DNA from: Escherichia coli | Lineage (GTDB): Bacteria; Pseudomonadota; Gammaproteobacteria; Enterobacterales; Enterobacteriaceae | Reading direction: 5' to 3' (one strand) | NCBI RefSeq assembly: GCF_001677475.2 | Contig: NZ_CP015229.1 | Length of the DNA stretch: 64,000 nt | Part shown: one piece after another, positions 10,297 through 50,616 of the stretch | Numbering within the stretch: position 1 is the first letter of the stretch | How the letters are laid out: every line of letters starts with the position of its first letter | Translations under genes and position numbers: made by a program | Notes under the pieces: generated by a model | Databases searched by the model: none | Told to the model about the DNA's origin: nothing | The model's input: only the letters and a program-made list of their open reading frames with translations

Positions 10297-12582
10297 ATGA
10301 ATCAGAATCTGCTGGTGACAAAGCGCGACGGTAGCACAGAGCGCATCAATCTCGACAAAATCCATCGCGTTCTGGATTGGGCGGCAGAAGGACTGCATAA
10401 CGTTTCGATTTCCCAGGTCGAGCTGCGCTCCCACATTCAGTTTTATGACGGTATCAAGACCTCTGACATCCACGAAACCATTATCAAGGCTGCCGCAGAC
10501 CTGATCTCCCGTGATGCGCCGGATTATCAGTATCTCGCCGCGCGCCTGGCGATCTTCCACCTGCGTAAAAAAGCCTACGGCCAGTTTGAGCCGCCTGCGC
10601 TGTACGACCACGTGGTGAAAATGGTCGAGATGGGCAAATACGATAATCATCTGCTGGAAGACTACACGGAAGAAGAGTTCAAGCAGATGGACACGTTTAT
10701 CGATCACGACCGTGATATGACCTTCTCTTATGCTGCCGTTAAGCAGCTGGAAGGCAAATATCTGGTACAGAACCGCGTGACCGGCGAAATCTACGAAAGC
10801 GCCCAGTTCCTTTATATTCTGGTTGCCGCGTGCCTGTTCTCGAACTACCCGCGTGAAACGCGCCTGCAATATGTGAAGCGTTTTTACGACGCGGTTTCCA
10901 CATTTAAAATTTCGCTGCCGACGCCAATCATGTCCGGCGTGCGTACCCCGACTCGTCAGTTCAGCTCCTGCGTACTGATCGAGTGCGGCGACAGCCTGGA
11001 TTCCATCAACGCCACCTCCAGCGCGATTGTGAAATATGTTTCCCAGCGTGCCGGGATCGGCATCAACGCCGGGCGTATTCGTGCGCTGGGTAGCCCGATT
11101 CGCGGTGGCGAAGCGTTCCATACCGGCTGCATTCCGTTCTACAAACATTTCCAGACAGCGGTGAAATCCTGCTCTCAGGGCGGCGTGCGCGGCGGTGCGG
11201 CAACGCTGTTCTACCCAATGTGGCATCTGGAAGTGGAAAGCCTGCTGGTGTTGAAAAACAACCGTGGTGTGGAAGGCAACCGCGTGCGCCATATGGACTA
11301 CGGGGTACAGATCAACAAACTGATGTATACCCGCCTGCTGAAAGGTGAAGATATCACTCTGTTCAGCCCGTCCGACGTACCGGGGCTGTACGACGCGTTC
11401 TTCGCCGATCAGGAAGAGTTTGAACGTCTGTATACCAAATATGAGAAAGACGACAGCATCCGTAAGCAGCGTGTGAAAGCCGTTGAGCTGTTCTCGCTGA
11501 TGATGCAGGAACGTGCGTCTACCGGTCGTATCTATATTCAGAACGTTGACCACTGCAATACCCATAGCCCGTTTGATCCGGCCATCGCGCCAGTGCGCCA
11601 GTCAAACCTGTGCCTGGAGATAGCCCTGCCGACCAAACCGCTGAACGACGTCAACGACGAGAACGGTGAAATCGCGCTGTGTACGCTGTCTGCTTTCAAC
11701 CTGGGCGCAATTAATAGCCTGGATGAACTGGAAGAGCTGGCAATTCTGGCGGTTCGTGCACTTGACGCGCTGCTGGATTATCAGGATTACCCGATCCCGG
11801 CCGCCAAACGTGGAGCGATGGGTCGTCGTACGCTGGGTATTGGTGTGATCAACTTCGCTTACTACCTGGCGAAGCATGGTAAACGCTACTCCGACGGCAG
11901 CGCCAACAACCTGACGCATAAAACCTTCGAAGCGATTCAGTATTACCTGCTGAAAGCGTCTAATGAGCTGGCGAAAGAGCAAGGCGCGTGCCCGTGGTTT
12001 AACGAAACCACTTACGCGAAAGGGATCCTGCCGATCGATACTTATAAGAAAGATCTGGATGCCATCGCTAATGAGCCGCTGCATTACGACTGGGAAGCTC
12101 TGCGTGAGTCAATCAAAACGCACGGCCTGCGTAACTCCACGCTTTCTGCTCTGATGCCCTCCGAGACTTCTTCGCAGATCTCTAACGCCACTAACGGTAT
12201 TGAACCGCCGCGCGGTTACGTCAGCATCAAAGCGTCGAAAGACGGTATTCTGCGCCAGGTGGTGCCGGATTACGAGCATCTGCACGACGCCTATGAGCTG
12301 CTGTGGGAAATGCCGGGTAACGATGGCTACCTGCAACTGGTGGGTATCATGCAGAAATTTATCGATCAGTCGATCTCTGCCAACACCAACTACGATCCGT
12401 CACGCTTCCCGTCAGGAAAAGTGCCGATGCAGCAGTTGCTGAAAGACCTGCTCACCGCCTACAAATTCGGGGTCAAAACGCTGTATTATCAGAACACCCG
12501 TGACGGTGCTGAAGACGCACAAGACGATCTGGTGCCGTCAATCCAGGATGATGGCTGCGAAAGCGGCGCATGTAAGATCTGA
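10297..12582 (+). CDS. nrdA: Ribonucleoside-diphosphate reductase 1 alpha subunit (class Ia)
   Basis: 761-aa ORF; N-terminal ATP-cone (MNQNLLVTKRDGSTERINLDKIHRVL), catalytic core, C-terminal Cys pair. Confidence 0.97.
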   Translation: MNQNLLVTKRDGSTERINLDKIHRVLDWAAEGLHNVSISQVELRSHIQFYDGIKTSDIHETIIKAAADLISRDAPDYQYLAARLAIFHLRKKAYGQFEPPALYDHVVKMVEMGKYDNHLLEDYTEEEFKQMDTFIDHDRDMTFSYAAVKQLEGKYLVQNRVTGEIYESAQFLYILVAACLFSNYPRETRLQYVKRFYDAVSTFKISLPTPIMSGVRTPTRQFSSCVLIECGDSLDSINATSSAIVKYVSQRAGIGINAGRIRALGSPIRGGEAFHTGCIPFYKHFQTAVKSCSQGGVRGGAATLFYPMWHLEVESLLVLKNNRGVEGNRVRHMDYGVQINKLMYTRLLKGEDITLFSPSDVPGLYDAFFADQEEFERLYTKYEKDDSIRKQRVKAVELFSLMMQERASTGRIYIQNVDHCNTHSPFDPAIAPVRQSNLCLEIALPTKPLNDVNDENGEIALCTLSAFNLGAINSLDELEELAILAVRALDALLDYQDYPIPAAKRGAMGRRTLGIGVINFAYYLAKHGKRYSDGSANNLTHKTFEAIQYYLLKASNELAKEQGACPWFNETTYAKGILPIDTYKKDLDAIANEPLHYDWEALRESIKTHGLRNSTLSALMPSETSSQISNATNGIEPPRGYVSIKASKDGILRQVVPDYEHLHDAYELLWEMPGNDGYLQLVGIMQKFIDQSISANTNYDPSRFPSGKVPMQQLLKDLLTAYKFGVKTLYYQNTRDGAEDAQDDLVPSIQDDGCESGACKI

Positions 12583-12608
12583 TAATCCCCCAGCCTTTGC
12601 ACCAAACC

Positions 12609-12648
12609 GTCCCCTCTCCCCTTGCGGGAGAGGGTTAGGGTGAGGGGT
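12609..12648. repeat. GC-rich palindromic element between nrdA and nrdB
   Basis: cccctctcccCTTGCgggagaggg followed by ttagggtgagggg; stem cctctccc/gggagagg. Confidence 0.4.
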
Positions 12649-12670
12649 AATAAAACCACAGGACACATTC

Positions 12671-13801
12671 ATGGCATATACCACCTTTTCACAGACGAAA
12701 AATGATCAGCTCAAAGAACCGATGTTCTTTGGTCAGCCGGTCAACGTGGCTCGCTACGATCAGCAAAAATATGACATCTTCGAAAAGCTGATCGAAAAGC
12801 AGCTCTCTTTCTTCTGGCGTCCGGAAGAAGTTGACGTTTCTCGTGACCGTATCGATTACCAGGCATTGCCTGAACACGAAAAACACATCTTTATCAGCAA
12901 CCTGAAATATCAGACGCTGCTGGACTCAATTCAGGGTCGCAGCCCAAACGTGGCACTGCTGCCGCTGATCTCGATCCCGGAACTGGAGACCTGGGTCGAA
13001 ACCTGGGCGTTCTCAGAAACGATTCATTCCCGTTCCTATACTCATATCATTCGTAATATCGTTAACGATCCGTCTGTTGTCTTTGACGATATCGTCACCA
13101 ACGAGCAGATCCAGAAACGTGCGGAAGGGATCTCCAGCTATTACGATGAACTGATCGAAATGACCAGCTACTGGCATCTGCTGGGCGAAGGCACCCACAC
13201 CGTTAACGGTAAAACCGTAACCGTTAGCCTGCGCGAGCTGAAGAAAAAACTCTATCTCTGCCTGATGAGCGTTAACGCGCTGGAAGCGATCCGCTTCTAC
13301 GTTAGCTTCGCTTGCTCCTTTGCGTTCGCCGAACGCGAACTGATGGAAGGTAACGCCAAAATTATTCGCCTGATTGCCCGCGACGAAGCCCTGCACCTGA
13401 CCGGTACTCAGCATATGCTGAATCTGCTGCGCAGCGGCGCGGATGATCCGGAGATGGCGGAAATTGCCGAAGAATGTAAGCAGGAGTGCTATGACCTGTT
13501 TGTCCAGGCGGCACAGCAAGAGAAAGACTGGGCGGATTATCTGTTCCGTGACGGTTCGATGATTGGTCTGAATAAAGATATTCTCTGCCAGTACGTTGAA
13601 TACATCACCAATATCCGCATGCAGGCAGTCGGTTTGGATCTGCCGTTCCAGACGCGCTCCAACCCGATCCCGTGGATCAACACCTGGTTGGTGTCTGATA
13701 ACGTGCAGGTTGCTCCGCAGGAAGTGGAAGTCAGTTCTTATCTGGTCGGGCAGATTGACGCGGAAGTGGACACCGACGATTTGAGTAACTTCCAGCTCTG
13801 A
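12671..13801 (+). CDS. nrdB: Ribonucleoside-diphosphate reductase 1 beta subunit
   Basis: 376-aa ORF with diiron-tyrosyl radical protein features; immediately downstream of nrdA. Confidence 0.97.
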
Positions 13802-14055
13802 TGGCCCGCGTTACCCTGCGCATCACTGGCACACAACTGCTGTGCCAGGATGAACACCCTTCCCTTCTGGCGGCGCTGGAATCCCACAATGTGGCGGTTG
13901 AGTACCAGTGCCGCGAAGGTTATTGCGGCTCCTGTCGCACCCGACTGGTCGCAGGTCAGGTGGACTGGATTGCCGAACCGTTAGCCTTTATTCAGCCGGG
14001 GGAAATTTTGCCCTGTTGTTGCCGGGCAAAAGGCGATATTGAAATCGAGATGTGA
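13801..14055 (+). CDS. yfaE: 2Fe-2S ferredoxin involved in NrdB cofactor maintenance
   Basis: 84-aa ORF with Cys cluster CREGYCGSC...CCC; start overlaps the nrdB stop. Confidence 0.88.
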   Translation: MARVTLRITGTQLLCQDEHPSLLAALESHNVAVEYQCREGYCGSCRTRLVAGQVDWIAEPLAFIQPGEILPCCCRAKGDIEIEM

Positions 14056-29090: not shown

Positions 29091-30296
29091 TTATTGCGGC
29101 GACAGTCTCAGCGACTCAACAACCTCAATCCAGCCATGCTCACTGGCGATGTTCTGCCCGTTCAGCCAGCGGCGCAGCATATTCAGTGCCATCATTGCGC
29201 ACACTTCCTGACGGATAGCCAGGCTGTAGCGCGTAGTGCTGAAACGCACACGCAGAGCGAAAGTGCCGTCTGGTGTGGCTAGCGCAAAGTTGAGATGTTC
29301 GTTCTCGAAACCAGAAACAGCCAGTGCCAGCCCGGCAAAATGGTTGGCCCGCCGTTCTGTAATCCAGTGTGCAGTTTGCGCCAGAGTTTCTTCCTGTGAA
29401 GGAACCACTTCACATGCCAGTAATGGCGCACCTGCGCGCGAGAGTTGCAAAGCCAATAAACCACCGGTGAATTGCTCACTTAACGTCAGGCTGAACTGGC
29501 GACTTTGCAGTTCGCGACTGATTTGTGCAGGCAGTCCTTCTGTGCCTTCGAAAATCATGCTTTGCCCGGCGACGCGTTTAACGTCCAGCCACAGTTTTTC
29601 CATCGCCTGTTGCTCGCTTGCCGGTCCAGTGAGTTTCAGTTCAATAATCGGCATGGAAGAGCGATAGCCCATCGTCACACCTGGCGGCAGTTGCAACACA
29701 TCCAGGCTTTGTGCCAGATCGCTTTCCGAACGACCAAAAGTGGTCAGCCGCAGGCAAACCGGCGGCTGCGGCAAAGAAAAACGCTCGCGCAGGCGCGGCA
29801 GGATTTCATGCTCGACCATCACCTTAAACTCCGACGGTACGCCGGGGGTAAAGAATATCAGGCAACGGTTAAGCTGCACGGCAAAACCACAAGCGGTGCC
29901 TACCGGGTTATTGATAAATTCAGCACTGGCTGGCAGCTCCGCCTGTTTGCGGTTGCTCGGCGCCATTACGCGACCACGTTCGCGGAAATAGCGTTCCATC
30001 TCATTGAGCCATGCTTCATGAAGAACCAGGTTTTCACCTTTGGCTGTCGCTGCGGCGAGTGCGCTTAAATCATCACTGGTCGGCCCCAGTCCGCCATTGA
30101 CGATCAGCACATCGGCGTGCTGACTACGTTCGCGCAGAATGGTGACTAAGTCATCAAGGTTATCCCCCACCGTATTGCGGCGAGATAATGGCAACCCCTG
30201 ATGAAAGAAAAAATCGGCCAGCCAGGCAGCGTTAGTGTCAACGATTTGCCCGTGTAACACTTCATCCCCGGTGGATAGCATTTCCACTTTTAACAT
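29091..30296 (-). CDS. yfaY: CinA-like (MoCF-binding / competence-damage) protein
   Basis: 401-aa ORF MLKVEMLSTGDEVLHGQIVDTNAAWLADFF... typical CinA N-terminal domain. Confidence 0.85.
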   Translation of the reverse strand: MLKVEMLSTGDEVLHGQIVDTNAAWLADFFFHQGLPLSRRNTVGDNLDDLVTILRERSQHADVLIVNGGLGPTSDDLSALAAATAKGENLVLHEAWLNEMERYFRERGRVMAPSNRKQAELPASAEFINNPVGTACGFAVQLNRCLIFFTPGVPSEFKVMVEHEILPRLRERFSLPQPPVCLRLTTFGRSESDLAQSLDVLQLPPGVTMGYRSSMPIIELKLTGPASEQQAMEKLWLDVKRVAGQSMIFEGTEGLPAQISRELQSRQFSLTLSEQFTGGLLALQLSRAGAPLLACEVVPSQEETLAQTAHWITERRANHFAGLALAVSGFENEHLNFALATPDGTFALRVRFSTTRYSLAIRQEVCAMMALNMLRRWLNGQNIASEHGWIEVVESLRLSPQ

Positions 30297-30395
30297 GGTT
30301 ATCTCCTGCTTTTGTTATCGAATCACTATAACGCAAAGGGAGATAAGGCGTAGTAAGAAACTGAATGGCGCGGCAGAATGCCGCGCCGGAAGGGA

Positions 30396-30938
30396 TCAGA
30401 AACTGGCGTTAACCCCCACATACGGGCCGTCAGCCACGGCGTTGTCGCGGTTACCGTCTTTACCCGACAGATTCAGGTAGCGATAACCCGCCTCAATACT
30501 GACTGGACGTATAATGGTGTAACGCGCGCCAGCATTCGCTTCCTCATAACTTTGAATACCGCTGGAGAGCGAATCCGGAGAGTAGTAATACTCGCCAAAC
30601 AAACGGAAGCTGTTGCCAATTTTCCACTGCAAACCACCTCCTACCGCTGCGGCATAACCTTCATCGCCGTAATTCGGGTTGGTGTAAACGCCTTTTCCGC
30701 CAACGGTCGCCATTAACGGCCCGAGAGGCAGATTCAACCCCAGCCCCACGCCCGCGACGTCACCGTCGTCGTCGTTATGTGTCCAGTTACCGCTTAACGC
30801 CAGGCCCGTCGATTCAGTCCCAAAACCGACACCAATATTGGTGTATTCTTTACCCGCCTGACCGCTGATGCTCATTGCATTGACCGATGCAGAAACCAAC
30901 AGCATTCCGGCCAGACCTGCTAGCGCAATTTTTTTCAT
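30396..30938 (-). CDS. yfaZ: Small outer-membrane beta-barrel protein YfaZ
   Basis: Start MKKIALAGLAGMLLVSASVNA (signal peptide), Gly/Tyr-rich beta-strands, C-terminal F. Confidence 0.8.
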   Translation of the reverse strand: MKKIALAGLAGMLLVSASVNAMSISGQAGKEYTNIGVGFGTESTGLALSGNWTHNDDDGDVAGVGLGLNLPLGPLMATVGGKGVYTNPNYGDEGYAAAVGGGLQWKIGNSFRLFGEYYYSPDSLSSGIQSYEEANAGARYTIIRPVSIEAGYRYLNLSGKDGNRDNAVADGPYVGVNASF

Positions 30939-31216
30939 TATCCCCTTTCCCACAAGCAATTAATCAAAATTCCCAAAGCTGCGGGATTGTACTGCCTGGC
31001 ACAGAGGATTCAATGAGCGAAAAAAGGGATCTAGTCACTTATTGTAACTAAATACTTCTTAAATAATTAAACGCCGAAAAAATAAACACACTTTATCGAT
31101 ACACACAAAAATAATAATAAGTACAGTTATCATCGCAAAAGAGATTACTGTCACTTTCACATATTTCTGAGTTACCGTATTCTCATGGTTTCTTTTAATT
31201 TATAAGGAATACCCCT

Positions 31217-31642
31217 GTGCGACAACGGACTATTGTATGCCCTTTGATTCAAAATGATGGTGCTTATTTGCTGTGTAAAATGGCCGACGATCGCGGCGTT
31301 TTCCCCGGTCAATGGGCGCTTTCGGGTGGCGGCGTGGAGTCTGGCGAACGAATTGAAGAGGCACTACGCCGCGAAATTCGCGAAGAACTGGGAGAACAGC
31401 TGCTTTTGACAGAAATCACGCCGTGGACCTTCAGCGATGATATTCGCACCAAGACGTATGCAGATGGTCGCAAGGAAGAGATTTATATGATTTACCTGAT
31501 TTTTGACTGCGTTTCTGCCAACCGAGAAGTGAAAATAAACGAAGAGTTTCAGGACTACGCGTGGGTAAAACCTGAAGATCTGGTGCATTATGATTTGAAT
31601 GTTGCCACCCGAAAAACGTTACGTTTGAAAGGTCTTCTTTAA
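31217..31642 (+). CDS. nudI: Nucleoside triphosphatase NudI (Nudix hydrolase)
   Basis: 141 aa with Nudix box [23 protein letters not shown]. Confidence 0.9.
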
Positions 31643-31649
31643 CAATGAT

Positions 31650-31669
31650 GACAGCCATCACTGGCTGTC
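31650..31669. terminator. Hairpin between convergent nudI and ais
   Basis: gacagcca-TCAC-tggctgtc. Confidence 0.4.
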
Positions 31670-31680
31670 AGATTGAAAAT

Positions 31681-32283
31681 TTAGTGGTTAACGAATTCCC
31701 CATCCAGATAAACTTTGCCTTTTTCCACATGCATGACTAAACCATCCAGATAATCAGGTTTAAATGTCGCATCACGCTTATCTTTAGCAATATATGTTAG
31801 GCAATGATTATGGGTAAAAATAACGATATTTTTATCAGGTGCTTTTCTTTGTAAGTCTTTAATTGCACTATAAATCTCATTACCGCATTGAAGAAGTCGT
31901 TTATCTACCGTCAGCTTTTTACCCGCTGAAAACCAGGTCGCCGACTGAATGGTCCGGACGGTATTACTGGAATAAAGATCGAAATCAGGGATATCAGCGC
32001 TAAAAGCGTTGCCCAGTTCACGGGCATCCTGGGTACCTTTAACCGTAATACCTGTTTTATCTGACAAGCATTGATTAGTTGAACGATCGCAACGTTCAGC
32101 ATGGCGAAACAAAACGACAACCGGGTGCTGCTGTGCCAGTCTGGCCAATGTTTTATTGTCGATACGTGGCAAACCATTGCTACTCCAGGCGGCATGAGTA
32201 CCCAGTCCGGCAATTGCAGCGAGCGCCAGTAAAATGATGAAATATTTTTTTGACTTCAATGATGAGCGGCAAAAAGCTAACAC
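31681..32283 (-). CDS. ais: PmrA-regulated LPS core heptose(II)-phosphate phosphatase Ais
   Basis: GTG start giving (M)[25 protein letters not shown]..., histidine-phosphatase RHAER motif; 200 aa. Confidence 0.85.
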
Positions 32284-32475
32284 GTAAACTCCACCTATAG
32301 ACAAGCGCAACCAGACAATTACCGTGAAATTGAGCGACATTTCTGGCAATAATTAGCAGTTGGTGTAATATTAAAAATCCTACGATGTCGGCAAAATGCC
32401 TCAAATTTTTGCCAAATGCAAAGCCTAAATAAGAAAAAATATAAAAATTTCAATATTTACGTCTAATATTAGTTT

Positions 32476-32492
32476 CTTAAGGTTAAGTTAAT
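32476..32492 (+). promoter_or_regulatory. PmrA (BasR) box of the arnB promoter
   Basis: CTTAAG-gttaa-GTTAAT direct repeat with 5-bp spacer, about 80 bp upstream of the arnB start. Confidence 0.6.
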
Positions 32493-32572
32493 ATTCTATC
32501 CTTAAAATTTCGCTCCAAATGGCAAAATATACACAACACTCTTTATAGAAAATATAAGTGGACAGGTATTCA

Positions 32573-33730
32573 ATGGCGGAAGGAAAAGCAATGTCAGAAT
32601 TTTTGCCTTTTTCGCGACCAGCAATGGGCGTGGAGGAACTCGCTGCAGTTAAAGAGGTTCTCGAATCCGGTTGGATCACAACCGGTCCGAAGAATCAGGC
32701 GCTTGAACAAGCCTTTTGCCAGTTGACGGGAAATCAGCATGCCATCGCGGTCAGTTCAGCCACCGCCGGAATGCATATCACGCTAATGGCGTTGGAAATT
32801 GGCAAGAGCGATGAAGTGATTACGCCTTCCCTGACCTGGGTTTCAACCCTCAATATGATTTCCTTGTTGGGTGCAACGCCGGTAATGGTGGATGTCGACC
32901 GCGATACGCTGATGGTCACGCCTGAAGCTATCGAGTCAGCCATTACGCCACGCACTAAAGCCATCATTCCGGTGCATTATGCCGGTGCGCCAGCAGATAT
33001 TGACGCCATTCGCGCCATTGGCGAACGTTACGGCATCGCAGTTATCGAAGATGCAGCCCATGCCGTCGGTACGTATTACAAAGGGCGACATATTGGCGCA
33101 AAAGGTACCGCTATTTTTTCGTTTCACGCCATCAAAAATATTACCTGTGCGGAAGGTGGCCTGATTGTTACTGATAATGAAAATCTTGCCCGCCAGCTAC
33201 GGATGCTGAAATTTCACGGTCTGGGTGTCGATGCCTATGACAGACAAACCTGGGGCCGTGCACCGCAGGCTGAAGTCTTAACGCCGGGCTATAAGTACAA
33301 TCTGACCGATATTAACGCCGCGATTGCCCTGACACAGTTAGTCAAATTAGAGCACCTCAACACCCGTCGGCGCGAAATTGCCCTGCAATACCAGCAAGCA
33401 CTGGCAGCTCTCCCCTTTCAGCCATTAAGCCTTCCCGCCTGGCCGCACGTTCACGCCTGGCATCTGTTTATTATTCGTGTCGATGAACAACGTTGTGGTA
33501 TCAGTCGCGATGCGTTGATGGAAGCGTTAAAAGAAAGAGGCATTGGTACCGGGTTACATTTCCGCGCCGCTCACACACAAAAATATTATCGCGAGCGTTG
33601 TCCCACGCTGTCGTTACCGAATACCGAATGGAATAGCGAACGCATCTGTTCGTTGCCGCTGTTCCCGGATATGACTACCGCCGATGCCGACCGCGTCATC
33701 ACAGCCCTTCAGCAACTCGCAGGACAATAA
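32573..33730 (+). CDS. arnB: UDP-4-amino-4-deoxy-L-arabinose--oxoglutarate aminotransferase
   Basis: Start [16 protein letters not shown]; DegT/ArnB-family PLP aminotransferase. Confidence 0.95.
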
Positions 33731-34701
<971 letters not shown>

Positions 34702-34702
<1 letters not shown>

Positions 34703-36684
34703 TGAAAACCGTCGTTTTTGCCTACCACGATATGGGATGCCTCGGTATTGAAGCCCTGCTGTCTGCCGGTTACGAAATTAGCGCCATTTTTACCCATACC
34801 GATAATCCCGGTGAAAAAGCCTTTTATGGTTCGGTGGCTCGTCTGGCGGCGGAAAGAGGCATTCCGGTTTATGCGCCGGATAACGTTAATCACCCGCTGT
34901 GGGTGGAACGTATTGCCCAACTCTCACCAGAGGTGATTTTCTCTTTTTATTATCGCCATCTTATTTGCGACGAGATTTTGCAGCTCGCTCCCGCAGGTGC
35001 ATTTAATCTGCATGGTTCGCTGTTACCAAAATATCGTGGTCGCGCGCCGCTGAACTGGGTGCTGGTGAACGGTGAAACGGAAACTGGCGTTACATTGCAC
35101 CGAATGGTGAAACGTGCCGATGCCGGGGCCATTGTGGCGCAACTGCGCATTGCCATTGCGCCAGACGATATCGCTATTACGCTGCATCATAAATTGTGCC
35201 ATGCCGCGCGCCAGCTACTGGAACAGACATTACCCGCCATTAAACACGGTAATATTCTGGAAATCGCCCAGCGCGAAAACGAAGCCACCTGTTTTGGTCG
35301 CAGAACGCCGGATGACAGTTTCCTCGAATGGCATAAGCCGGCATCTGTACTGCACAACATGGTGCGTGCCGTTGCCGATCCGTGGCCGGGTGCCTTCAGC
35401 TATGTTGGCAATCAGAAATTCACCGTCTGGTCGTCGCGTGTTCATCCTCATACCAGCAAAGCACAGCCGGGGAGCGTGATTTCTGTAGCGCCACTGCTGA
35501 TTGCCTGTGGCGATGGCGCGCTGGAAATCGTCACCGGACAGGCGGGCGACGGCATTACTATGCAGGGCTCGCAATTAGCGCAGACGCTGGGCCTGGTGCA
35601 AGGTTCACGCTTGAATAGCCAGCCTGTCTGCACCGCCCGACGCCGTACCCGGGTACTCATCCTCGGGGTGAATGGCTTTATTGGCAACCATCTGACAGAA
35701 CGCCTGCTGCGCGAAGATCATTATGAAGTTTACGGTCTGGATATCGGCAGCGATGCGATAAGCCGTTTTCTGAATCATCCGCATTTTCACTTTGTCGAAG
35801 GCGATATCAGTATTCATTCCGAATGGATTGAGTATCACGTCAAAAAATGTGATGTCGTCTTGCCGCTGGTGGCGATAGCCACGCCGATTGAATATACCCG
35901 CAACCCACTGCGCGTATTTGAACTCGATTTTGAAGAGAATCTGCGCATTATCCGCTACTGCGTGAAGTACCGTAAGCGAATCATCTTCCCATCAACTTCA
36001 GAAGTTTATGGGATGTGTAGCGATAAATACTTCGATGAGGACCATTCTAATTTAATCGTCGGCCCGGTGAATAAACCACGCTGGATTTATTCGGTGTCAA
36101 AACAATTACTTGATCGGGTTATCTGGGCCTATGGCGAAAAAGAGGGTTTACAGTTCACCCTCTTCCGCCCGTTTAACTGGATGGGACCACGACTGGATAA
36201 CCTTAATGCGGCACGAATCGGCAGCTCCCGCGCTATTACGCAACTCATTCTCAATCTGGTAGAAGGTTCACCGATTAAGCTGATTGATGGCGGAAAACAA
36301 AAACGCTGCTTTACTGATATTCGCGATGGTATCGAGGCGTTATACCGCATTATCGAAAATGCGGGAAATCGCTGCGACGGCGAAATTATCAACATTGGCA
36401 ATCCTGATAACGAAGCGAGCATTGAGGAACTGGGCGAGATGCTGCTGGCGAGCTTCGAAAAACATCCGCTGCGCCATCACTTCCCACCGTTTGCGGGCTT
36501 TCGCGTTGTCGAAAGTAGCAGCTACTACGGCAAAGGATATCAGGACGTAGAGCATCGTAAACCGAGCATCCGCAATGCCCGCCGCTGCCTGGACTGGGAA
36601 CCCCAAATTGATATGCAGGAAACCATCGACGAAACGCTGGATTTCTTCCTGCGCACCGTTGATCTTACGGATAAACCATCATGA
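34702..36684 (+). CDS. arnA: Bifunctional UDP-glucuronate decarboxylase / UDP-Ara4N formyltransferase
   Basis: 660 aa; N-terminal formyltransferase and C-terminal SDR decarboxylase domains. Confidence 0.95.
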
Positions 36685-37571
36685 CCAAAGTAGGCTTACG
36701 CATTGATGTCGATACCTTTCGTGGCACCCGTGAAGGCGTGCCGCGTCTGCTGGAAATCTTGAGTAAGCATAATATTCAGGCCAGCATTTTTTTCAGCGTC
36801 GGCCCGGACAATATGGGCCGCCATCTCTGGCGACTGGTGAAGCCACAGTTTTTGTGGAAGATGCTGCGCTCAAACGCGGCATCGCTTTATGGCTGGGATA
36901 TTTTACTGGCAGGTACGGCCTGGCCGGGTAAAGAGATTGGTCATGCCAATGCCGATATCATTCGTGAAGCAGCTAAACATCACGAAGTCGGCCTGCACGC
37001 CTGGGATCACCATGCCTGGCAAGCCCATAGCGGTAACTGGGATCGGCAAACATTGGTCGACGATATTGCACGCGGCCTTCGCACTCTGGAAGAGATTATC
37101 GGTCAACCGGTAACCTGTTCTGCCGCTGCGGGCTGGCGTGCCGACCAGCAGGTGATCGAAGCAAAAGAAGCGTTCCATTTGCGCTACAACAGCGATTGTC
37201 GTGGGGCCATGCCGTTTCGGCCACTGCTCGAATCAGGAAACCCTGGCACTGCGCAAATTCCGGTGACCTTACCCACCTGGGATGAAGTGATTGGTCGGGA
37301 TGTGAAAGCAGAAGATTTTAACGGTTGGTTACTCAACCGCATCCTGCGAGATAAAGGCACGCCGGTTTATACCATTCATGCCGAAGTTGAAGGCTGCGCT
37401 TATCAGCATAATTTTGTGGATCTCCTGAAACGCGCAGCCCAGGAAGGCGTGACATTTTGCCCTTTAAGCGAACTGTTATCAGGGACGTTGCCGCTCGGAC
37501 AAGTTGTTCGCGGAAATATTGCCGGACGTGAAGGCTGGCTGGGTTGCCAACAAATTGCGGGTAGTCGCTGA
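36681..37571 (+). CDS. arnD: 4-deoxy-4-formamido-L-arabinose-phosphoundecaprenol deformylase
   Basis: 296-aa polysaccharide-deacetylase-fold ORF, overlapping the arnA stop. Confidence 0.93.
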
Positions 37572-39223
37572 TGAAATCGGTACGTTACCTTATCGGCCTC
37601 TTCGCGTTTATTGCCTGCTATTACCTGTTACCGATCAGCACGCGTCTGCTATGGCAACCCGATGAAACGCGTTATGCGGAAATCAGTCGGGAAATGCTGG
37701 CATCCGGCGACTGGATTGTGCCCCATCTGTTAGGGCTACGTTATTTTGAAAAACCCATTGCCGGATACTGGATTAACAGCATTGGGCAATGGCTATTTGG
37801 CGCGAATAACTTTGGTGTGCGGGCAGGCGTTATCTTTGCGACCCTGTTAACTGCCGCGCTGGTGACCTGGTTTACTCTGCGCTTATGGCGCGATAAACGT
37901 CTGGCTCTACTCGCCGCAGTGATTTATCTCTCATTGTTTATTGTCTATGCCATCGGCACTTATGCCGTGCTCGATCCGTTTATTGCATTCTGGCTGGTGG
38001 CGGGAATGTGCAGCTTCTGGCTGGCAATGCAGGCACAGACGTGGAAAGGCAAAAGCGCGGGATTTTTACTGCTGGGAATCACTTGCGGCATGGGGGTGAT
38101 GACCAAAGGTTTTCTCGCCCTTGCCGTGCCGGTATTAAGCGTGCTTCCATGGGTTGCATCGCAAAAACGCTGGAAAGATCTCTTTATTTACGGCTGGCTG
38201 GCGGTTATCAGTTGCGTACTGACGGTTCTCCCCTGGGGACTGGCGATAGCGCAGCGGGAGCCTGACTTCTGGCACTATTTTTTCTGGGTTGAGCATATTC
38301 AACGCTTTGCAATGGATGATGCTCAGCATAGAGCTCCGTTCTGGTACTACTTGCCGGTCATCATTGCCGGTAGCCTGCCGTGGCTGGGATTACTCCCCGG
38401 AGCACTGTACGCAGGCTGGAAAAACCGCAAGCATTCCGCAACCGTCTATTTGTTGAGCTGGACGATAATGCCGCTGCTGTTTTTCTCCGTCGCTAAAGGC
38501 AAATTGCCCACCTATATTCTTTCCTGCTTTGCACCTCTGGCAATGCTGATGGCGCATTACGCTTTGCTGGCAGCAAAAAATAATCCTCTGGCGCTGCGGA
38601 TTAATGGCTGGATTAACATCGCTTTTGGTGTCACTGGCATTATTGCCACATTTGTGGTCTCCCCATGGGGACCAATGAACACGCCAGTGTGGCAAACCTT
38701 CGAGAGCTATAAAGTCTTTTGTGCCTGGTCGATTTTTTCGCTATGGGCATTTTTCGGCTGGTACACCTTAACAAACGTCGAAAAGACCTGGTCTTTTGCC
38801 GCGCTTTGCCCGCTGGGGCTGGCGTTGCTGGTAGGATTTTCAATTCCTGACAGAGTCATGGAAGGAAAACATCCGCAATTTTTTGTCGAGATGACACAAG
38901 AATCACTTCAGCCAAGCCGCTATATTCTTACTGATAGCGTCGGTGTTGCCGCAGGTCTGGCATGGAGCCTGCAACGCGATGACATCATCATGTATCGCCA
39001 GACAGGTGAGTTGAAATACGGCCTTAATTATCCGGATGCGAAAGGGAGATTTGTCAGCGGTGATGAGTTCGCAAACTGGCTTAATCAACATCGTCAGGAG
39101 GGGATTATTACACTCGTGCTTTCGGTTGACCGCGATGAAGATATCAACAGTCTCGCCATTCCGCCCGCAGATGCCATCGATCGTCAGGAGCGTCTGGTGC
39201 TGATTCAGTATCGGCCCAAATGA
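37571..39223 (+). CDS. arnT: Undecaprenyl-phosphate-alpha-L-Ara4N : lipid A arabinosyltransferase
   Basis: 550-aa polytopic GT-C membrane protein. Confidence 0.95.
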
Positions 39224-39555
39224 TCTGGCTAACATTAGTCTTTGCCAGCTTGCTTAGCGTTGCCGGGCAGTTGTGTCAGAAACAAGCAACCTGCTTTGTG
39301 GCGATAAACAAACGGCGCAAACATATCGTGCTGTGGCTGGGACTGGCGCTGGCTTGTCTTGGTCTTGCCATGGTGCTCTGGCTGCTGGTCTTGCAGAACG
39401 TACCGGTAGGCATTGCCTACCCGATGTTAAGTCTGAATTTTGTCTGGGTGACGCTGGCTGCAGTAAAACTGTGGCACGAGCCGGTATCACTGCGTCACTG
39501 GTGTGGGGTGGCATTCATTATTGGCGGCATTGTGATCCTCGGGAGTACGGTGTAA
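39220..39555 (+). CDS. arnE: Undecaprenyl-phosphate-Ara4N flippase subunit ArnE
   Basis: 111-aa four-TM small-multidrug-resistance-like protein; overlaps the arnT stop. Confidence 0.9.
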
Positions 39556-39941
39556 TGGGCCTGATGTGGGGATTATTCAGCGTCATTATTGCCTCAGCTG
39601 CGCAATTAAGCCTGGGTTATGCGGCGAGTCATCTACCGCCGATGACGCACTTATGGGATTTTATCGCGGCGCTGTTAGCTTTTGGCCTGGATGCCCGGAT
39701 ACTGTTACTCGGGCTGCTGGGTTATCTGCTTTCCGTTTTTTGTTGGTATAAAACGCTACATAAACTTGCGTTAAGCAAAGCCTATGCCTTGCTCAGTATG
39801 AGCTATGTGCTGGTATGGATTGCATCAATGATACTTCCCGGCTGGGAAGGAACTTTTTCGCTGAAGGCACTACTGGGAGTTGCTTGTATTATGAGCGGGT
39901 TGATGTTGATTTTCCTGCCCACGACAAAACAACGTTACTGA
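39555..39941 (+). CDS. arnF: Undecaprenyl-phosphate-Ara4N flippase subunit ArnF
   Basis: 128 aa from ATG 39555 (TAATG overlap with arnE); [28 protein letters not shown]... Confidence 0.9.
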
Positions 39942-40201
39942 GTTTTCCCTGCCGCTGTACACTGCCGTTCCCACTCATCGGGGCTATAACTGCTTGCCGA
40001 GAGGACTTTAACCGTATGCAGCTTTTCACGATTAATACAGTAAAGGGCATTCTGCAAAGGCGAGAGTAAATCCCCCACTTTCACGGCGAAGTCACTCTTC
40101 ACTTCGGCGATCATTTTTATCGCGCCGCCAGCATCGCAGAGCATAAGTACATGTCTGTTATCTTGTTTATTGCAGCACGATTTTTTGACCAGCCATTCCA
40201 T
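39935..40201 (-). CDS. pmrD: Signal-transduction connector protein PmrD
   Basis: Start [30 protein letters not shown]...; 88 aa. Confidence 0.85.
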
Positions 40202-40310
40202 TGCATTATCCTGTTTGCTAAGAGTTTTCACATCAATTTACAGATTAACAGATAAACTCTTTATCAACGGCAATGGAATGGCAGAAATGAGAAGTGAAAC
40301 GGATGGTTAA

Positions 40311-41666
40311 TTATTGCTGGCGTTGCACCCACTCTTTTAGCGCCTGACGTGAAATTTTAATACCACCGTTTTTCAGTTCAGGTGGAAGCGTCAGCCAACG
40401 CACCGGTTGTTGAAAACGGGCCAGCTTATCTTTCACCCATTCGCCAAGATCAACGGTTTGCTGGTCATACTCCACCACCGCTACCGGTCGATGACCAAAC
40501 TCCTTGTCGGCAACGGGAACGATAAACACCTGCAAAACCGCAGGATGTGCAGCAATAACGCGCTCGACTTCTTCTGGCTGAATGCCTTCGCCACCACTGA
40601 AGAACAGATTGTCTAAACGTCCGACAATGGTCAGCTTGCCATTATGCATCTCACCGCGATCGCGCGTGGCGTACCAGCCTTCGTCATTAACCAGTGGAAC
40701 CAGTTGCCCGTTACGCCAGTAACCTTCTGCCATGCTGGCAGCCCGCAGCCACACTTCGTCGTTTACGATTTTCACTTCCCGACCCGGCAGCGGCGAACCG
40801 ACGTCTGCCAGACCGTCGGCTTCTTTCGCACACACCGTGGAGGCAAACTCGGTCAGACCATAGCCGCAAAAGCAACGAATCCCCTGCTCGCGCGCCTGTT
40901 CCGTCAACTCGACCGGAATTGCCGCACCGCCAAGTAACACCGCTTTCAGGGAAACGGAACTGCGGTTAACCAGCAAACGCCAGAGTTGTGTTGGCACCAG
41001 TGAAGCGTGAGTACAGCCTGCCAGCATTTGCTCCAATGGCTGTTTATCACGTACCGTCATCCGCGCACCAGCGTATAACCAGCGCCACATAATTCCCTGA
41101 CCGGAGACGTGAAACAGCGGTAAAGAGAGCAACCAGTCATCGTGCTCGCCAAACGGTATCAGCGATAACACACCTTGCGCACTGGCAAGATGGGCCTGAT
41201 AAGTATGAACAGCGGCTTTCGGCAAACCGGTAGAGCCGGAGGTCAACGTCATTGAGCACAGACGCGTCGGCTGCCACGCAGCGGCATGTGCGCCTTCAAC
41301 CAGCTGAATGTGCAGCGACGTTAACGCCGGAAACGTGTTTTCCCCATCCGGCACCAGCGCAAATTGCAGCGTCAGATTGGGCAGCAATTCTTCAAGCAAC
41401 GGTTGCGGCAGCTGAGGGTTCACGGGCAACACCCGCGCCCCGCATTGCAGTAACGCCAGCCAGGCGAGCAGCGTTTGCGGCGTATTCCACGCCCGCAACA
41501 TCACGCCGCTGCCCTCAACCACACCCTGCGCCGCAAAGCCGGAGGCTAATTCATCGACGCGAGCACAAAGCTCGCGCCAGTTGAGTTGCTCGTCATTAAG
41601 ACGTAAGGCGATGGCTTCTCCCCGCACTTGCCGCCAGTGACGCCACGGCCAGTCAGAGAAGATCAT
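40311..41666 (-). CDS. menE: o-Succinylbenzoate--CoA ligase
   Basis: 451-aa adenylate-forming enzyme with TSGSTGLPK motif. Confidence 0.93.
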
Positions 41667-42625
41667 AACAACCGCTCCAGTGCATCAACTTCCACGACAG
41701 GCAGCGTGCTACCCGGCCAGCGACGTACCTGCTGCGCCTGCATCAGATCCAGCGTGTCCAGCCCTGGAATGGTGTCCGGCGTTAACCAGGCGGCAATCCG
41801 CGCCAGTTGCGTTAAGCCTAAGCTCGATTCAATGGAAGAACTGATCACCGCCGTCAGCCCCACCGCGTGCGCCGCCTGTACCTGCTCGCGTACTTTTTCC
41901 AGACTGCCCGTGAGCGTGGGTTTGATAACTACCGCGCGCACGCCCTCTTCAGCCACAAAGGCAAAATCCGGCTCGCGCAGGCTTTCATCCCAGGCAATGG
42001 CAATGCCGGTTTCACGGGCAAACGCTCGCGAATCATCGCGGGTTTTGCACGGCTCTTCGAGAAACGCGATGCGGTCGCGATAATCCGGGTTAACGTATTT
42101 GGCAAACTGCTGACCTTTCAGCGGTGTCCAGGCGCGATTTGCGTCAAGACGCAAATGCAGATCCGGAATTGCCTCCAGCAACAGATTCACCACCATGCCG
42201 TCGCGCACCGCTTCGTACAATCCCACTTTGACCTTCGCCACTTTCTCGCCAGGCATATCGGCAAGTTTGAGGATCAGATCGTCCGGATCGCCATTACACA
42301 GTGGTGCCGTACGGTAATTGGCCGCCTGCGGGAGCGTATCTGCCAGCTCCGCCAATGCACAGCTTACGCCAAAGGCGACGGAAGGCAGCTGCGGTAATTC
42401 GCAATCGCCTGCCAGCCAGTTATTTACCCAGGCAAGCAGCACACTTTGCGCCTCTTCCCAGGTTTCCTGACTGAAGCCCGGCAGTGGGGAGATCTCCCCC
42501 CACCCTTCGCGCTCGCCTTCACGCAGGCAAACATACAGCCCGTCGCGGGTTTTTAACCGCCTGTCGCGCAGAACCACCCCCGCGTCCATGGGGATCTGCC
42601 AGCGGTATACCTGCGCGCTACGCAT
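41663..42625 (-). CDS. menC: o-Succinylbenzoate synthase
   Basis: 320-aa enolase-superfamily ORF, overlapping menE. Confidence 0.93.
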
Positions 42626-43482
42626 TACGGATTCCGTTTAAATTTGCTGAAATCAGGCTGACGTTTCTGGTTGAAGGCGTTGCGACCTTCCTGACCTTCT
42701 TCCGTCATGTAGAACAGCATGGTGGCGTTGCCCGCCAGCTCCTGCAGACCTGCCTGACCGTCACAGTCGGCGTTCAGTGCAGCTTTCAGGCAGCGCAGCG
42801 CCATCGGGCTGTTTTGCAGCATTTCGCGGCACCAACGGACGGTTTCTTTTTCCAGATCCGCCAGCGGTACCACGGTGTTCACAAGGCCCATATCCAGCGC
42901 CTGTTTTGCGTCGTACTGACGGCACAGGAACCAGATTTCACGCGCTTTTTTCTGTCCGACGATGCGAGCCATGTAGGAAGCGCCCCAGCCGCCGTCGAAG
43001 GAACCGACTTTCGGGCCAGTCTGACCGAAGATGGCATTATCTGCCGCGATAGTCAGGTCGCACATCATGTGCAGAACGTGACCGCCGCCGATGGAGTAGC
43101 CAGCCACCATCGCGACAACCGGTTTCGGACAGGTACGGATCTGACGCTGGAAGTCCAGCACGTTCAGGTGATGTACGCCGGAATCATCTTTATAGCCGCC
43201 GTAATCACCACGCACTTTCTGGTCACCACCGGAGCAGAACGCTTTATCGCCTGCGCCAGTCAGAATGATCACCCCGACATTATCGTCATAACGCGCATCT
43301 GCCAGTGCCTGGATCATCTCTTTTACCGTCAGAGGACGGAAGGCATTGCGCACCTGCGGACGATTAATGGTGATTTTTGCGATACCGTCGGTGGATTTTT
43401 CATAACGAATGTCCTCAAAGCCTTCGGAGCAGTCGTGCCATTCAACCGGTGCGTAAAGCATTGCTTCATCAGGATAAATCAT
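42625..43482 (-). CDS. menB: 1,4-dihydroxy-2-naphthoyl-CoA synthase
   Basis: 285-aa crotonase-fold [33 protein letters not shown]... Confidence 0.95.
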
Positions 43483-43496
43483 ATTGTGTCCTTTAG

Positions 43497-44255
43497 TCAG
43501 AAACGCAAGATCTGCGCCAGACTTGCGATTACGCCAGCGGGATTTTCCCGGTGCGCGTTATGTCCGGCGCGAGGAATGACATGGCAGTCGGCAGCCAGTT
43601 CCGTCGCCAGGGCGCGGAATTTGCTGTCACGTTCACCACATAAATAATAAAACGCAAATGTGCGGGCGCTAAGGTTAGCACGTAAATCAGGCTGAACGGC
43701 GAGAGAAGTCGCCTCCAGCATGGCGGCAAGGGTTGCGCCATTATTGTTGCTGCGCAGCGCCACCAGCTCCCGGCGTTGATCGTCATTGAGTGAGGCAAAA
43801 ACAGGCTGTTGATACCAGTCGGCAAATACCGCCGTTAACGGTTCTGTGAGAAAACGCTGCACCCATTGGCGATCGGAACGCTGACGTTCCGCACGTTGTT
43901 CAGCATTTTGCAGCCCCGGATGCCCGCCTTCGACAACAACCCCACAAAGCCCCGCCAGCCCCTGGCAAGCCGCCATCATCGCCACCCGTCCGCCAAGCGA
44001 GTACCCCACCAGCCAGAAGTCAAGGATGTTGTAACTAACCAAGGTTTTACGCAGTAAGTCGGTGACATCATCAAATCCATCGACGCTAATCGCCGCCGAA
44101 CCACCGTGACCTGGGAGATCAACATACAACCGTGAGTAGTCGGCAAACACCTCGCCCACTTCTTGCCATTCATGGCAATCGCCGGAAAAACCGTGCAAAA
44201 ACACCAGCCAGGGTAAACCTGGTTTACCGTGTTTTGCCTGCGCGTGCAGGATCAT
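43497..44255 (-). CDS. menH: 2-succinyl-6-hydroxy-2,4-cyclohexadiene-1-carboxylate synthase
   Basis: 252-aa alpha/beta-hydrolase ORF with GYSLGGR nucleophile elbow. Confidence 0.9.
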
Positions 44256-45922: not shown

Positions 45923-46010
45923 GAGTTTGTCCGGTATCAATATTGCGGCTAAGTATAAGGAGCTACAAAAATAGATTATTGATATGAATCGGTAATGATG
46001 CGACTCATTA

Positions 46011-47306: not shown

Positions 47307-47384
47307 GCGGACCTCTCCCTGTTAAAAGCCTCACATTATACGGGGTACTACAAAAAAAATGCAGTACCCCGGTGTAGGGAGGTT

Positions 47385-47690: not shown

Positions 47691-47744
47691 TCTCGTTCTC
47701 CATTTGCGTAAAACCTGTCACTAACTATAGACAAGGGTTATTGA

Positions 47745-48206: not shown

Positions 48207-48270
48207 AATGCTCTCCTTTTAGATGTATGCCTTATACTAGCCGGAATATTTTTTGAAACGTGATGAACTC

Positions 48271-49188: not shown

Positions 49189-49206
49189 CTCTGCTTACTA
49201 CTAAAA

Positions 49207-49230
49207 ACAGGGCGAAACTTGCCCTGTTAT
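49207..49230 (+). terminator. Hairpin after rbn
   Basis: acagggc-GAAACTT-gccctgt followed by TTAT. Confidence 0.45.
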
Positions 49231-50599: not shown

Positions 50600-50616
50600 C
50601 ATCATTGTTAGTCAAT

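Follow-up and report, generated by a model that had tools for sequence, protein, structure and literature searches.

The window analyzed here, a 64,000-nt stretch of Escherichia coli DNA, carries nrdA, nrdB, and yfaE in this order on the + strand, and the intercistronic spacer between nrdA and nrdB contains a GC-rich repeat (Table 1). The complete spacer reads TAATCCCCCAGCCTTTGCACCAAACCGTC-CCCTCTCCC-CTTGC-GGGAGAGGG-TTA-GGGTGAGGGG-TAATAAAACCACAGGACACATTC. The ribosome-binding region of nrdB lies 12 nt past the end of the repeat and is mostly unpaired in the predicted fold (unpaired probabilities, 0.5 to 0.9); the CAGGAC core of this stretch is also found in nine of the 10 other genera that we sampled, the exception being Cedecea. 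ORFs that run antisense through the spacer were weighed as possible genes and dismissed, the inserted repeat being taken as their source. The GC skew on the + strand of the window is negative; therefore, nrdAB would be oriented head-on to replication. The G-rich strand of the repeat is the non-template strand for nrdAB transcription and, judging from the GC skew, probably the leading-strand template for replication.

Table 1. Coordinates of genes, repeat parts, and signals at the nrdA-nrdB junction of the window
Feature	Coordinates	Strand	Basis or remark
nrdA, class Ia ribonucleotide reductase alpha subunit	10297..12582	+	761-aa ORF; matching stretch annotated nrdA in E. coli genomes
nrdA stop codon TGA	12580-12582	+	sequence
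nrdA-nrdB intercistronic spacer, 88 nt	12583..12670	+	sequence, ORF list, annotation
C-rich left arm of weaker outer RNA helix (predicted)	12587..12596	+	pairs with 12637-12647 (loop 2 and block 3) in MFE and centroid folds
Whole repeat copy	12596-12650	+	one BoxC/PIT/TM_ECO type A/HPG1 unit
5' extension of repeat unit, TTTGCACCAAACCGTC	12596..12611	+	resembles ycjD-fabI copy TTTGCACAATACGGTC
Block 1, pyrimidine arm CCCTCTCCC	12612..12620	+
Loop 1, CTTGC, 5 nt	12621..12625	+	makes the copy recognizable in Table S8 of Holder et al.
Block 2, purine arm GGGAGAGGG	12626..12634	+	Watson-Crick partner of block 1, 9/9 complementary
Four-tract G-quadruplex motif, GGG AGA GGG TTA GGG TGA GGGG	12626..12647	+	sense strand; equals HPG1
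Loop 2, TTA	12635..12637	+	defines type A; polymorphic in E. coli (TTA or GAC)
Block 3, GGGTGAGGG(G)	12638..12647	+	third strand of potential intrastrand triplex
nrdB ribosome-binding region	12660..12673	+	AGGA at 12660-12663, ATG at 12671-12673; sequence
nrdB, beta subunit, downstream gene	12671..13801	+
yfaE, next after nrdB	13801-14055	+

Anatomy and predicted folds of the spacer repeat

Positions 12612 to 12647 read CCCTCTCCC-CTTGC-GGGAGAGGG-TTA-GGGTGAGGG(G), i.e., a perfect 9-bp hairpin with arms that are 100% complementary and a loop of 5 nt, followed by a third G-rich block. As RNA, the hairpin alone is predicted to fold with −18.6 kcal/mol and the whole spacer with −30.4 kcal/mol, which confirms the original prediction of a stable, GC-rich hairpin in the 88-nt spacer (9/9 pairs). 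Block 3 is also 90% complementary to the C-rich arm, and GGGTGAGGGG nearly repeats the sequence of the 3' arm. The left arm of the weaker outer helix begins 4 nt past the nrdA stop codon; the pairing probability of this helix is just moderate, and it is absent in a second E. coli allele with GAC in loop 2 (the GAC allele; see below). Upstream of block 1, the 5' extension ends in CCGTC, the counterpart of the cGGTC consensus in type A copies of K-12, and BLAST matches to other copies start at spacer positions 14 to 17. The upstream C-run at 12587 to 12591 was considered as a conserved fourth block and rejected for E. coli, the copy close to fabI being without it.

We compared the three blocks with two criteria. 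First, a triplex repeat was defined by pyrimidine-purine-purine blocks of 6 to 15 nt separated by loops of 1 to 6 nt; the stretch at 12612 to 12646 has blocks of 9, 9, and 9 nt and loops of 5 and 3 nt, and when block 3 is folded antiparallel on block 2, nine of nine triplets are of the kinds permitted in a purine motif (G·G:C, A·A:T, and T·A:T), with 0 mismatches. Second, a G-quadruplex (G4) motif was defined by four runs of ≥3 G separated by loops of 1 to 7 nt; GGGAGAGGGTTAGGGTGAGGGG is also such a four-tract motif, with the loops AGA, TTA, and TGA. The original prediction had missed that the tail is a third structural block with which the hairpin can make up a perfect purine-motif triplex; it had likewise overlooked the G4 motif. 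Triplex and G4 are the features for which the repeat family is known. When both structures were evaluated as RNA using ViennaRNA, the G4 scored −12.6 kcal/mol compared to −18.6 kcal/mol for the hairpin (a difference of ~6 kcal/mol in favor of the hairpin), and the MFE fold with G4 formation allowed still retained the hairpin.

Among 21,319 overlapping 45-nt stretches in the window, the region ranks 4th in stability, and the z-score of the whole-spacer fold relative to shuffles is only −1.84. A 9-bp inverted repeat is not rare per se, with ~1.5 expected in 64 kb by our own estimate. The feature is non-random because of its sequence identity: in shuffles, 0 matches are expected for the hairpin pattern and likewise 0 for the 21-mer at 12626 to 12646, which is identical to a repeat described in the literature. 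Allowing up to three mismatches, we found no further copies in the 64-kb window, in which this 21-mer is single. A covariance-model scan of positions 12000 to 13200 against Rfam at a permissive threshold returned chance matches only (E ≥ 2.3, far under the gathering scores).

A strong GC hairpin between two genes could act as an intrinsic terminator or attenuator that reduces read-through into nrdB, and in Atlantibacter, Cronobacter, and Mangrovibacter, a plain hairpin just past the nrdA stop codon is indeed followed by a T-rich tail. In the window, the stem is followed by TTAGGGTGAGGGGTAATAAAACC, which contains no T-run, and a scan of the + strand of the spacer called neither terminator-like nor promoter-like sites. 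Members of the repeat family had no promoter or terminator activity in the tests of Hoyne & Maher, to the extent that these are summarized by Holder et al. (PMC4666352). We therefore agree with the original prediction that the element is not a terminator and attach almost no weight to this function.

One repeat family under four names

By its sequence, the spacer element is a copy of the repeat described as BoxC, PIT, TM_ECO type A, and HPG1. The 21-mer GGGAGAGGGTTAGGGTGAGGG equals both the HPG1 motif and published TM_ECO type A sequences, and a 36-mer of the spacer appears unchanged in Table S8 of Holder et al. 2015, for example as entry 89 (strain E24377A, 2526240-2526275), which maps between nrdA (end, 2526210) and nrdB (start, 2526299). 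The four names denote one object, and the copy at nrdA-nrdB has already been catalogued and so is already known; Holder et al. 2015 (PMC4666352) list it without discussing it by gene. According to the same authors, TM_ECO is the motif that was originally described as BoxC and that Hoyne and Maher subsequently found again and called the PIT element. Table 1 of Holder et al. contains 23 copies in K-12, with TTA as loop 2 in type A and CCG in type B, and they had already reported the motif from >260 genomes (PMC4666352). HPG1 (dGGGAGAGGGTTAGGGTGAGGG), for which Kaplan et al. 2016 (PMC5100583) reported 13 identical copies in K-12 with a C-rich region upstream, was proposed to function as a G-quadruplex-hairpin-duplex switch; a K+-dependent G4 signature and, in CD, ion-dependent switching in vitro were reported. 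That study makes no connection of HPG1 to the BoxC or triplex literature (PMC5100583).

Compared with BoxC/PIT/TM_ECO type A, the nrdAB copy has the same three blocks, identical blocks 2 and 3 and loop 2, and the same intergenic, multi-copy character, and we see no essential difference. Compared with HPG1, the 21-mer is identical and a competing C-rich hairpin region lies upstream in both, i.e., the two differ in name only. Within the type A copies, it differs from the "A mm" copies of K-12 (n = 13) in being of the rarer perfect type, with CCCTCTCCC instead of CCCTCGCCCC as block 1. Its loop 1 is CTTGC, and it is located within an operon on the sense strand, at a position where K-12 has no copy. 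BoxC/PIT/TM_ECO elements are reportedly also treated in Bergler 1992 and Bachellier 1999.

With regard to function, published work on the family has mostly been negative. Holder et al. (PMC4666352) report that family members fold in vitro into an intrastrand triplex that is stable, as analyzed by CD and NMR, and block DNA polymerase in vitro; that DMS footprinting in vivo detected no triplex; that RNA polymerase was unaffected; and that the published in vivo tests were without effect. They also report that a purine-motif triplex is unable to form in RNA and that rearrangement between E. coli strains affects TM loci more than it does control loci (PMC4666352). Across the family, orientation was unbiased, the distance to genes was inconsistent, and no general regulatory activity was found (PMC4666352). 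In our alignment with 16 K-12 copies, 16 of the 18 columns of the G blocks were identical in 20/20 sequences and the other two were conserved in ≥90%; in block 2, eight of the nine columns were invariant and the ninth was ≥90% conserved. The G-block pairs are uninformative with regard to covariation, being invariant and also fixed by the scan pattern. Block 3 is conserved family-wide yet superfluous for a plain hairpin, which argues that the upkeep of the family is not simply via an RNA stem-loop.

The core of the repeat matched at a median of 17 and a maximum of 30 places per genome in 5426 complete E. coli genomes. The best match in K-12 is located between ycjD and fabI and is TM_ECO no. 9 in the K-12 list of Holder et al. 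This fabI copy alone shares the extended 5' similarity TTTGCAC..A.AC.GT with the nrdAB copy; four other K-12 copies share just cGGTC. A 56-bp BoxC unit was not confirmed in the comparison of the nrdAB copy, the fabI copy, and these four copies. Overall, the E. coli copies share just ~45 nt, consisting of cGGTC, the TM module, and GGGGaaaa, with no terminal inverted repeats (TIR) or target-site duplications visible around them.

In a scan of contigs of representative genomes, the hairpin-plus-tail module was found in at least ~15 genomes; all listed matches are in non-enterobacterial metagenome-assembled genomes (MAGs) with several copies each. The matches listed include Afipia, Pseudolabrys, Hyphomicrobiales, two Deltaproteobacteria, Ca. 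Contendobacter, another gammaproteobacterium, an unclassified bacterium, and Ca. Gracilibacteria; they illustrate breadth and do not give a proper taxonomic distribution. Two of the MAGs have the module as a core within longer repeats that are specific to the respective genome, in one case with inverted-repeat-like ends. In the Gracilibacteria MAG, 14 of the 20 copies lie within open frames of >700 nt (code 25); both strands and several reading frames are represented. The motif is also present in 566 plasmid records, mostly of large Rhizobium, Klebsiella, Sinorhizobium, and Azospirillum replicons, and is essentially absent from phages (8/50,697 records). This breadth extends known facts and is not a new finding.

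These observations bear on the possibility that the element is mobile, either MITE-like or REP-like, and was inserted by transposition, perhaps with a preference for hairpin or REP sites. The multiple copies in alpha-, gamma-, and deltaproteobacterial MAGs and the Gracilibacteria MAG among the matches listed, the longer repeats with inverted-repeat-like ends, the copies in open frames, and the plasmid records are in agreement with mobility, as are the extra 5' stretch that the nrdAB and fabI copies have in common and the location of the nrdAB copy in exactly the slot of a REP-containing element (BIME) in other strains (see below). The E. coli copies argue against it, in that they show no visible target-site duplication or TIR and share only ~45 nt; moreover, Holder et al. 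(PMC4666352) never found a transposase or integrase near TM copies, and phages are nearly free of the motif. Together, we consider transposition of such an element quite improbable.

Spacer alleles in E. coli and related genera

The 88-nt TM spacer is present in 1683 of the 5426 complete E. coli genomes (about 31%). All other genomes in a 60-row sample, i.e., those without TM, have a REP/BIME spacer of 145, 189, 226 (O157:H7), or 233 nt (K-12). The slot that holds either BIME or TM is bordered by TGATA on the left and the nrdB ribosome-binding region on the right, and the spacer type does not vary with the similarity of the flanking genes. The REP consensus palindrome (of the GCCGGATG...CGCCTTATCCGGCCTAC type, often clustered) is not in the spacer of the window, which has no REP sequence in common with the REP-carrying spacers of K-12, O157, LR-62-2, and SCU-101. 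The original prediction had assigned the element to a small family of interspersed intergenic repeats and had proposed a genome-wide motif search and a comparison of the spacer across strains; the former identified a multi-copy repeat (median of 17 and up to 30 places per E. coli genome) published as BoxC/PIT/TM_ECO/HPG1, and the latter a presence/absence polymorphism. A motif unique to this locus and unconserved in relatives, which was to speak against that assignment, is clearly not what we found.

At least six alleles that differ in length or sequence exist at the locus, and two of them contain TM. The TM-TTA allele of the window has the consensus loop 2 of the family, and 151 genomes match the spacer of the window exactly; for the TM-GAC allele, 547 genomes are identical to the sequence of strain ZH063. 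In the GAC allele, CCGTC of the 5' flank pairs with GACGG, and CCGTCCCCTCTCCC and GGGAGAGGGGACGG form a perfect 14-bp palindrome. The predicted local hairpin accordingly has −34 kcal/mol in the GAC allele versus −25 kcal/mol in the TTA allele, and the distance from the stop codon is 24 nt for the 14-bp stem and 29 nt for the main stem of the TTA allele. Template switching at quasi-palindromes is a known mutational mechanism in E. coli. The change from TTA to GAC, with three adjacent substitutions complementary to the 5' flank CCGTC, is what such an event would be expected to produce; this likeness rests on two alleles, and gene conversion from another copy could explain a change in the reverse direction.

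To compare the spacer beyond E. coli, we analyzed spacers of ten other Enterobacteriaceae found through YfaE homologues. REP-like elements are present in the spacers of the locus L130, K. oxytoca, Phytobacter, Yokenella, and Cronobacter; Salmonella has other hairpins; and Cedecea and Buttiauxella have the TM/BoxC module in the same orientation as in E. coli. Because the REP-like elements in Yokenella, Phytobacter, K. oxytoca, and the locus L130 have flanks that resemble those of the E. coli BIME, REP is probably the older occupant. We infer that TM probably replaced an older REP/BIME within Escherichia.

A further point of comparison is the REP spacer of K-12. It occupies the same slot, and both elements are GC-rich palindromic interspersed repeats within nrdAB mRNA. 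They differ in that the K-12 REP belongs to an unrelated family, is present in three copies in a 233-nt spacer, and begins 9 nt past the nrdA stop codon, whereas the TM of the window is a single copy in 88 nt with its stem 29 nt from the stop. The REP at nrdAB in K-12 has been reported as an example of ribosome stalling by REPs that lie at a distance of ≤15 nt from a stop codon (PMC12306157, presenting Liang, Rudd & Deutscher 2015). The effect of REP on translation has been tested experimentally, whereas the element of the window is known from its sequence and predicted folds, and its main stem, at 29 nt (in the GAC allele, 24 nt), lies farther from the stop codon than the 15 nt within which REPs are reported to act.

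A stable GC hairpin was predicted in 10 of the 10 spacers from other genera (best local fold, −16.6 to −26 kcal/mol), with families that differ between genera. Including the E. coli alleles, all 15 spacer alleles from 11 genera have a strong local hairpin (−16.6 to −34 kcal/mol), and a fold of −16.6 kcal/mol is reached by only ~16% of 100-nt segments taken at random from the window; this background is mostly coding sequence, so that the enrichment is overstated, and the lineages are not independent of each other. Block 3 in Cedecea and Buttiauxella is predicted to pair with high probability with a degenerate upstream CCCTCACC-like arm, giving a long hairpin 4 to 7 nt past the stop codon. In Cedecea and both E. 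coli alleles, the predicted folds leave the nrdB ribosome-binding site unpaired; for Buttiauxella, a small local hairpin is predicted in which the CAGGAC stretch itself is paired. The pattern of structured spacers across the sampled genera is suggestive, and the repeat in Cedecea and Buttiauxella in the same orientation is hard to square with insertion of a random passenger and hints at retention, site preference, or selection.

One explanation, in line with the mRNA stabilization or modulated nrdA:nrdB ratio put forward in the original prediction, is that a stable helix near the nrdA stop codon is selected for control of nrdAB expression, in that it protects nrdA mRNA or stalls terminating ribosomes and thereby sets the NrdA:NrdB ratio. 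In addition to the strong hairpins in all 15 alleles, the start of the helix within ~10 nt of the stop codon in most alleles, the published translation-regulating role of the K-12 REP at this site (as presented in PMC12306157), the repeat in the spacers of three genera in one orientation, and the ribosome-binding sites left unpaired in both E. coli alleles and Cedecea are consistent with this explanation. Intergenic spacers are, however, the normal habitat of REP and BoxC, so that occupancy is no proof of function, and the limits of the structural background and of the non-independent lineages apply here as well. Moreover, the family studies found no consistent gene distance, orientation bias, or regulatory activity, and a stop-to-stem distance that varies from 4 to 29 nt across alleles is odd for a tuned device. 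We consider selection of such a helix unlikely. It is similarly improbable that unrelated families (REP/BIME, BoxC/TM, and plain hairpins) have been recruited interchangeably to supply it, and we would give an equally small chance to the notion that the E. coli alleles (one to three REPs, TM-TTA, and TM-GAC) set different NrdA:NrdB outputs via stem strength and the 4- to 29-nt distance.

A probable passenger repeat in nrdAB mRNA and its DNA-level potential

We consider, with reasonable confidence, that the BoxC/PIT/TM_ECO type A/HPG1 copy is most likely a passenger without an nrdAB-specific function and that its RNA hairpin serves only as a structured spacer of a generic kind. The element, whose G-rich strand is the sense strand, would be transcribed within nrdAB mRNA. 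A purine-motif triplex is unable to form in RNA, and the element in the mRNA should therefore be the hairpin, with an RNA G4 as a less favored alternative. The main hairpin together with the weaker outer helix, reaching to 4 nt past the nrdA stop codon, would leave the nrdB ribosome-binding site free. As is expected of any stable stem-loop between cistrons, it may shield the nrdA segment by blocking 3'-to-5' exonucleases and might also slightly hinder ribosomes that terminate, a role resembling the one that is published, as far as presented in PMC12306157, for the K-12 REP in the same slot. Any effect at the RNA level is inferred from predicted folds, and a tuned influence on the NrdA:NrdB ratio would be conceivable.

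At the DNA level, block 3 could fold back to form a purine-motif intrastrand triplex or join the purine arm in a G-quadruplex, and this potential for non-B DNA plausibly explains the strain-to-strain variability of the site. Taken further, the element might matter as DNA alone, with the exposed G-rich strand forming a triplex or G4 that causes polymerase stalling, repair, template switching, and rearrangement, and with no role of the RNA. The formation of triplex and the block to DNA polymerase by family members in vitro, their K+-dependent G4 signature, and the more frequent rearrangement of their loci relative to controls support this idea, and so do features of the nrdAB site itself: the at least six alleles, the three adjacent substitutions from TTA to GAC that perfect a 14-bp palindrome, and the position of the G-rich strand as the non-template strand for nrdAB and, by GC skew, the leading-strand template. 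On the other hand, DMS footprinting found no triplex in vivo, nor was an effect seen in the in vivo tests that have been published. BIMEs themselves vary in copy number, and the variability of the site need not stem from the TM repeat. A role confined to the DNA is possible, albeit doubtful; it overlaps with the preferred explanation of a passenger repeat and does not exclude it.

The recognition that four names denote one object is possibly useful, since the G-quadruplex study omitted the work on BoxC and the triplex. In about 31% of E. coli genomes, a TM repeat occupies the slot of the K-12 experimental model for REP-mediated control of translation, and BIMEs with one to three REPs, TM-TTA, and TM-GAC constitute a natural allelic series in which the effect of BoxC/TM on expression can be tested. 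Every sampled genus keeps a strong hairpin in the spacer, and a structural requirement in nrdAB mRNA is therefore worth testing. If the E. coli alleles do set different NrdA:NrdB outputs, this would be the first concrete cellular role for BoxC/TM and would explain its recurrence in Escherichia, Cedecea, and Buttiauxella.

Alleles and K-12 relatives of the nrdAB repeat

The three-block repeat (C arm, loop 1, G arm, loop 2, and block 3) in the nrdA-nrdB spacer occurs in E. coli as two alleles that are distinguished by loop 2, which reads TTA or GAC. The two differ by three adjacent substitutions that are complementary to the 5' flank, and in the GAC allele CCGTCCCCTCTCCC/GGGAGAGGGGACGG becomes a perfect 14-bp palindrome. 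Judged from the sequence, the TTA/GAC change looks like the outcome of quasi-palindrome template switching. Among E. coli genomes, exact matches to the GAC spacer were found in 547 genomes and exact matches to the spacer of the window in 151.

Features in and around nrdAB and in the compared loci
Feature	Location	Strand or orientation	Detail
Loop 2 of nrdAB repeat	window 12635-12637		TTA in window; GAC in other strains; compared loci L127, L128, L129 (E. coli S87, AVS0362, ZH063)
Extra 5' stretch, nrdAB copy	window 12596-12611		TTTGCAC.A.AC.GTC
Extra 5' stretch, ycjD-fabI copy	L003 1501-1516		TTTGCAC.A.AC.GTC
pstA-pstB copy of K-12	L141, NC_000913.3 3908495-3908530	G-rich strand antisense to pst transcription	within-operon copy
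Module in Cedecea nrdA-nrdB spacer	L135 about 810-845	same as E. coli	loop 2 TCA
Module in Buttiauxella nrdA-nrdB spacer	L138 about 806-841	same as E. coli	loop 2 TTA
yoaM of K-12	L002 551-586	antisense	11 codons, MSVSCWEFNAG
44-codon antisense frame	window 12538-12672	minus	opened by the ATG of yoaM; crosses the repeat

The window is probably from a divergent Escherichia lineage. Over the 20 kb at 30000-50000, none of the 5,426 complete E. coli genomes exceeded 98.1% identity with it; the nrdA-nrdB junction (window 12283-12970) is about 96.5% identical to K-12, and the best nrdAB matches (window 12000-13200) were environmental isolates.

Because the nrdAB and ycjD-fabI copies have in common an extra 5' stretch that is missing from four other K-12 copies, we suggest that these two are kin via duplication or conversion. 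The pstA-pstB spacer of K-12 holds a further within-operon copy; unlike in the nrdAB copy, its G-rich strand is antisense, and therefore orientation relative to the transcript is not fixed among within-operon copies.

Hairpins in other nrdA-nrdB spacers

The nrdA-nrdB spacers from 10 other Enterobacteriaceae (L130-L140; 53-182 nt) all contain a stable GC hairpin, and in most of them a helix starts at most about 10 nt from the nrdA stop codon. The hairpin families are unrelated. The E. coli module (TM/BoxC) is found in the Cedecea and Buttiauxella spacers. The sequence on either side of it there cannot be aligned with that of E. coli, and upstream of each copy lies a degenerate CCCTCACC-like arm, with block 3 as its pairing partner.

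Separately, the top local fold anywhere in the window (−26.9 kcal/mol) is at about 50611-50655, within which lies a near-perfect long palindrome, TTCGACCAGTCAGCA...TGCTGACTGGTCGAA.

The module in distant bacteria and plasmids

Among the genomes listed in a scan of representative genomes, the AT-rich Ca. Gracilibacteria MAG JALNXF01 carries about 20 GC-rich module copies, around which no conserved flanks were seen (L079-L095). Fourteen of 20 copies are inside open frames of >700 nt if UGA is taken as sense (code 25), on both strands and in several frames, and the peptides they would encode include PHPNPLPEGEG, ALTPTLSQRERE, and SLSLWERVGVR; this arrangement suggests insertion into genes. In MAG GL140_5 (L005-L032) and the LacPavin deltaproteobacterium (L050-L062), longer repeats specific to each genome have the module at their core. 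The GL140_5 repeat, with two subfamilies, is conserved over about 65 nt on the upstream side of the module and 22 nt on the downstream side. The LacPavin flanks, ttaatgagtgcagaaa ... tttccgctcccattaataa, resemble terminal inverted repeats. In gammaproteobacterial MAGs (L034-L038 and L063-L074), many copies have a second, inverted copy about 20 nt further on (CCCTCACCC NNN CCCTCTCCC), which is the same paired inverted layout as reported for five K-12 sites.

In the plasmid collection, the module was found in 566 records at 1555 places, with the caveat that several top matches labelled as plasmids are 4-5 Mb and evidently chromosomes. These records are mostly large replicons of Rhizobium, Klebsiella, Sinorhizobium, Azospirillum, Aeromonas, and Enterobacter.

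An antisense frame through the spacer

The small ORF yoaM, annotated in K-12, has a start that overlaps the nrdB start codon, and in the window its ATG opens a longer frame. As read from the sequence, the predicted product of this antisense frame is wholly set by whichever repeat occupies the nrdA-nrdB spacer.
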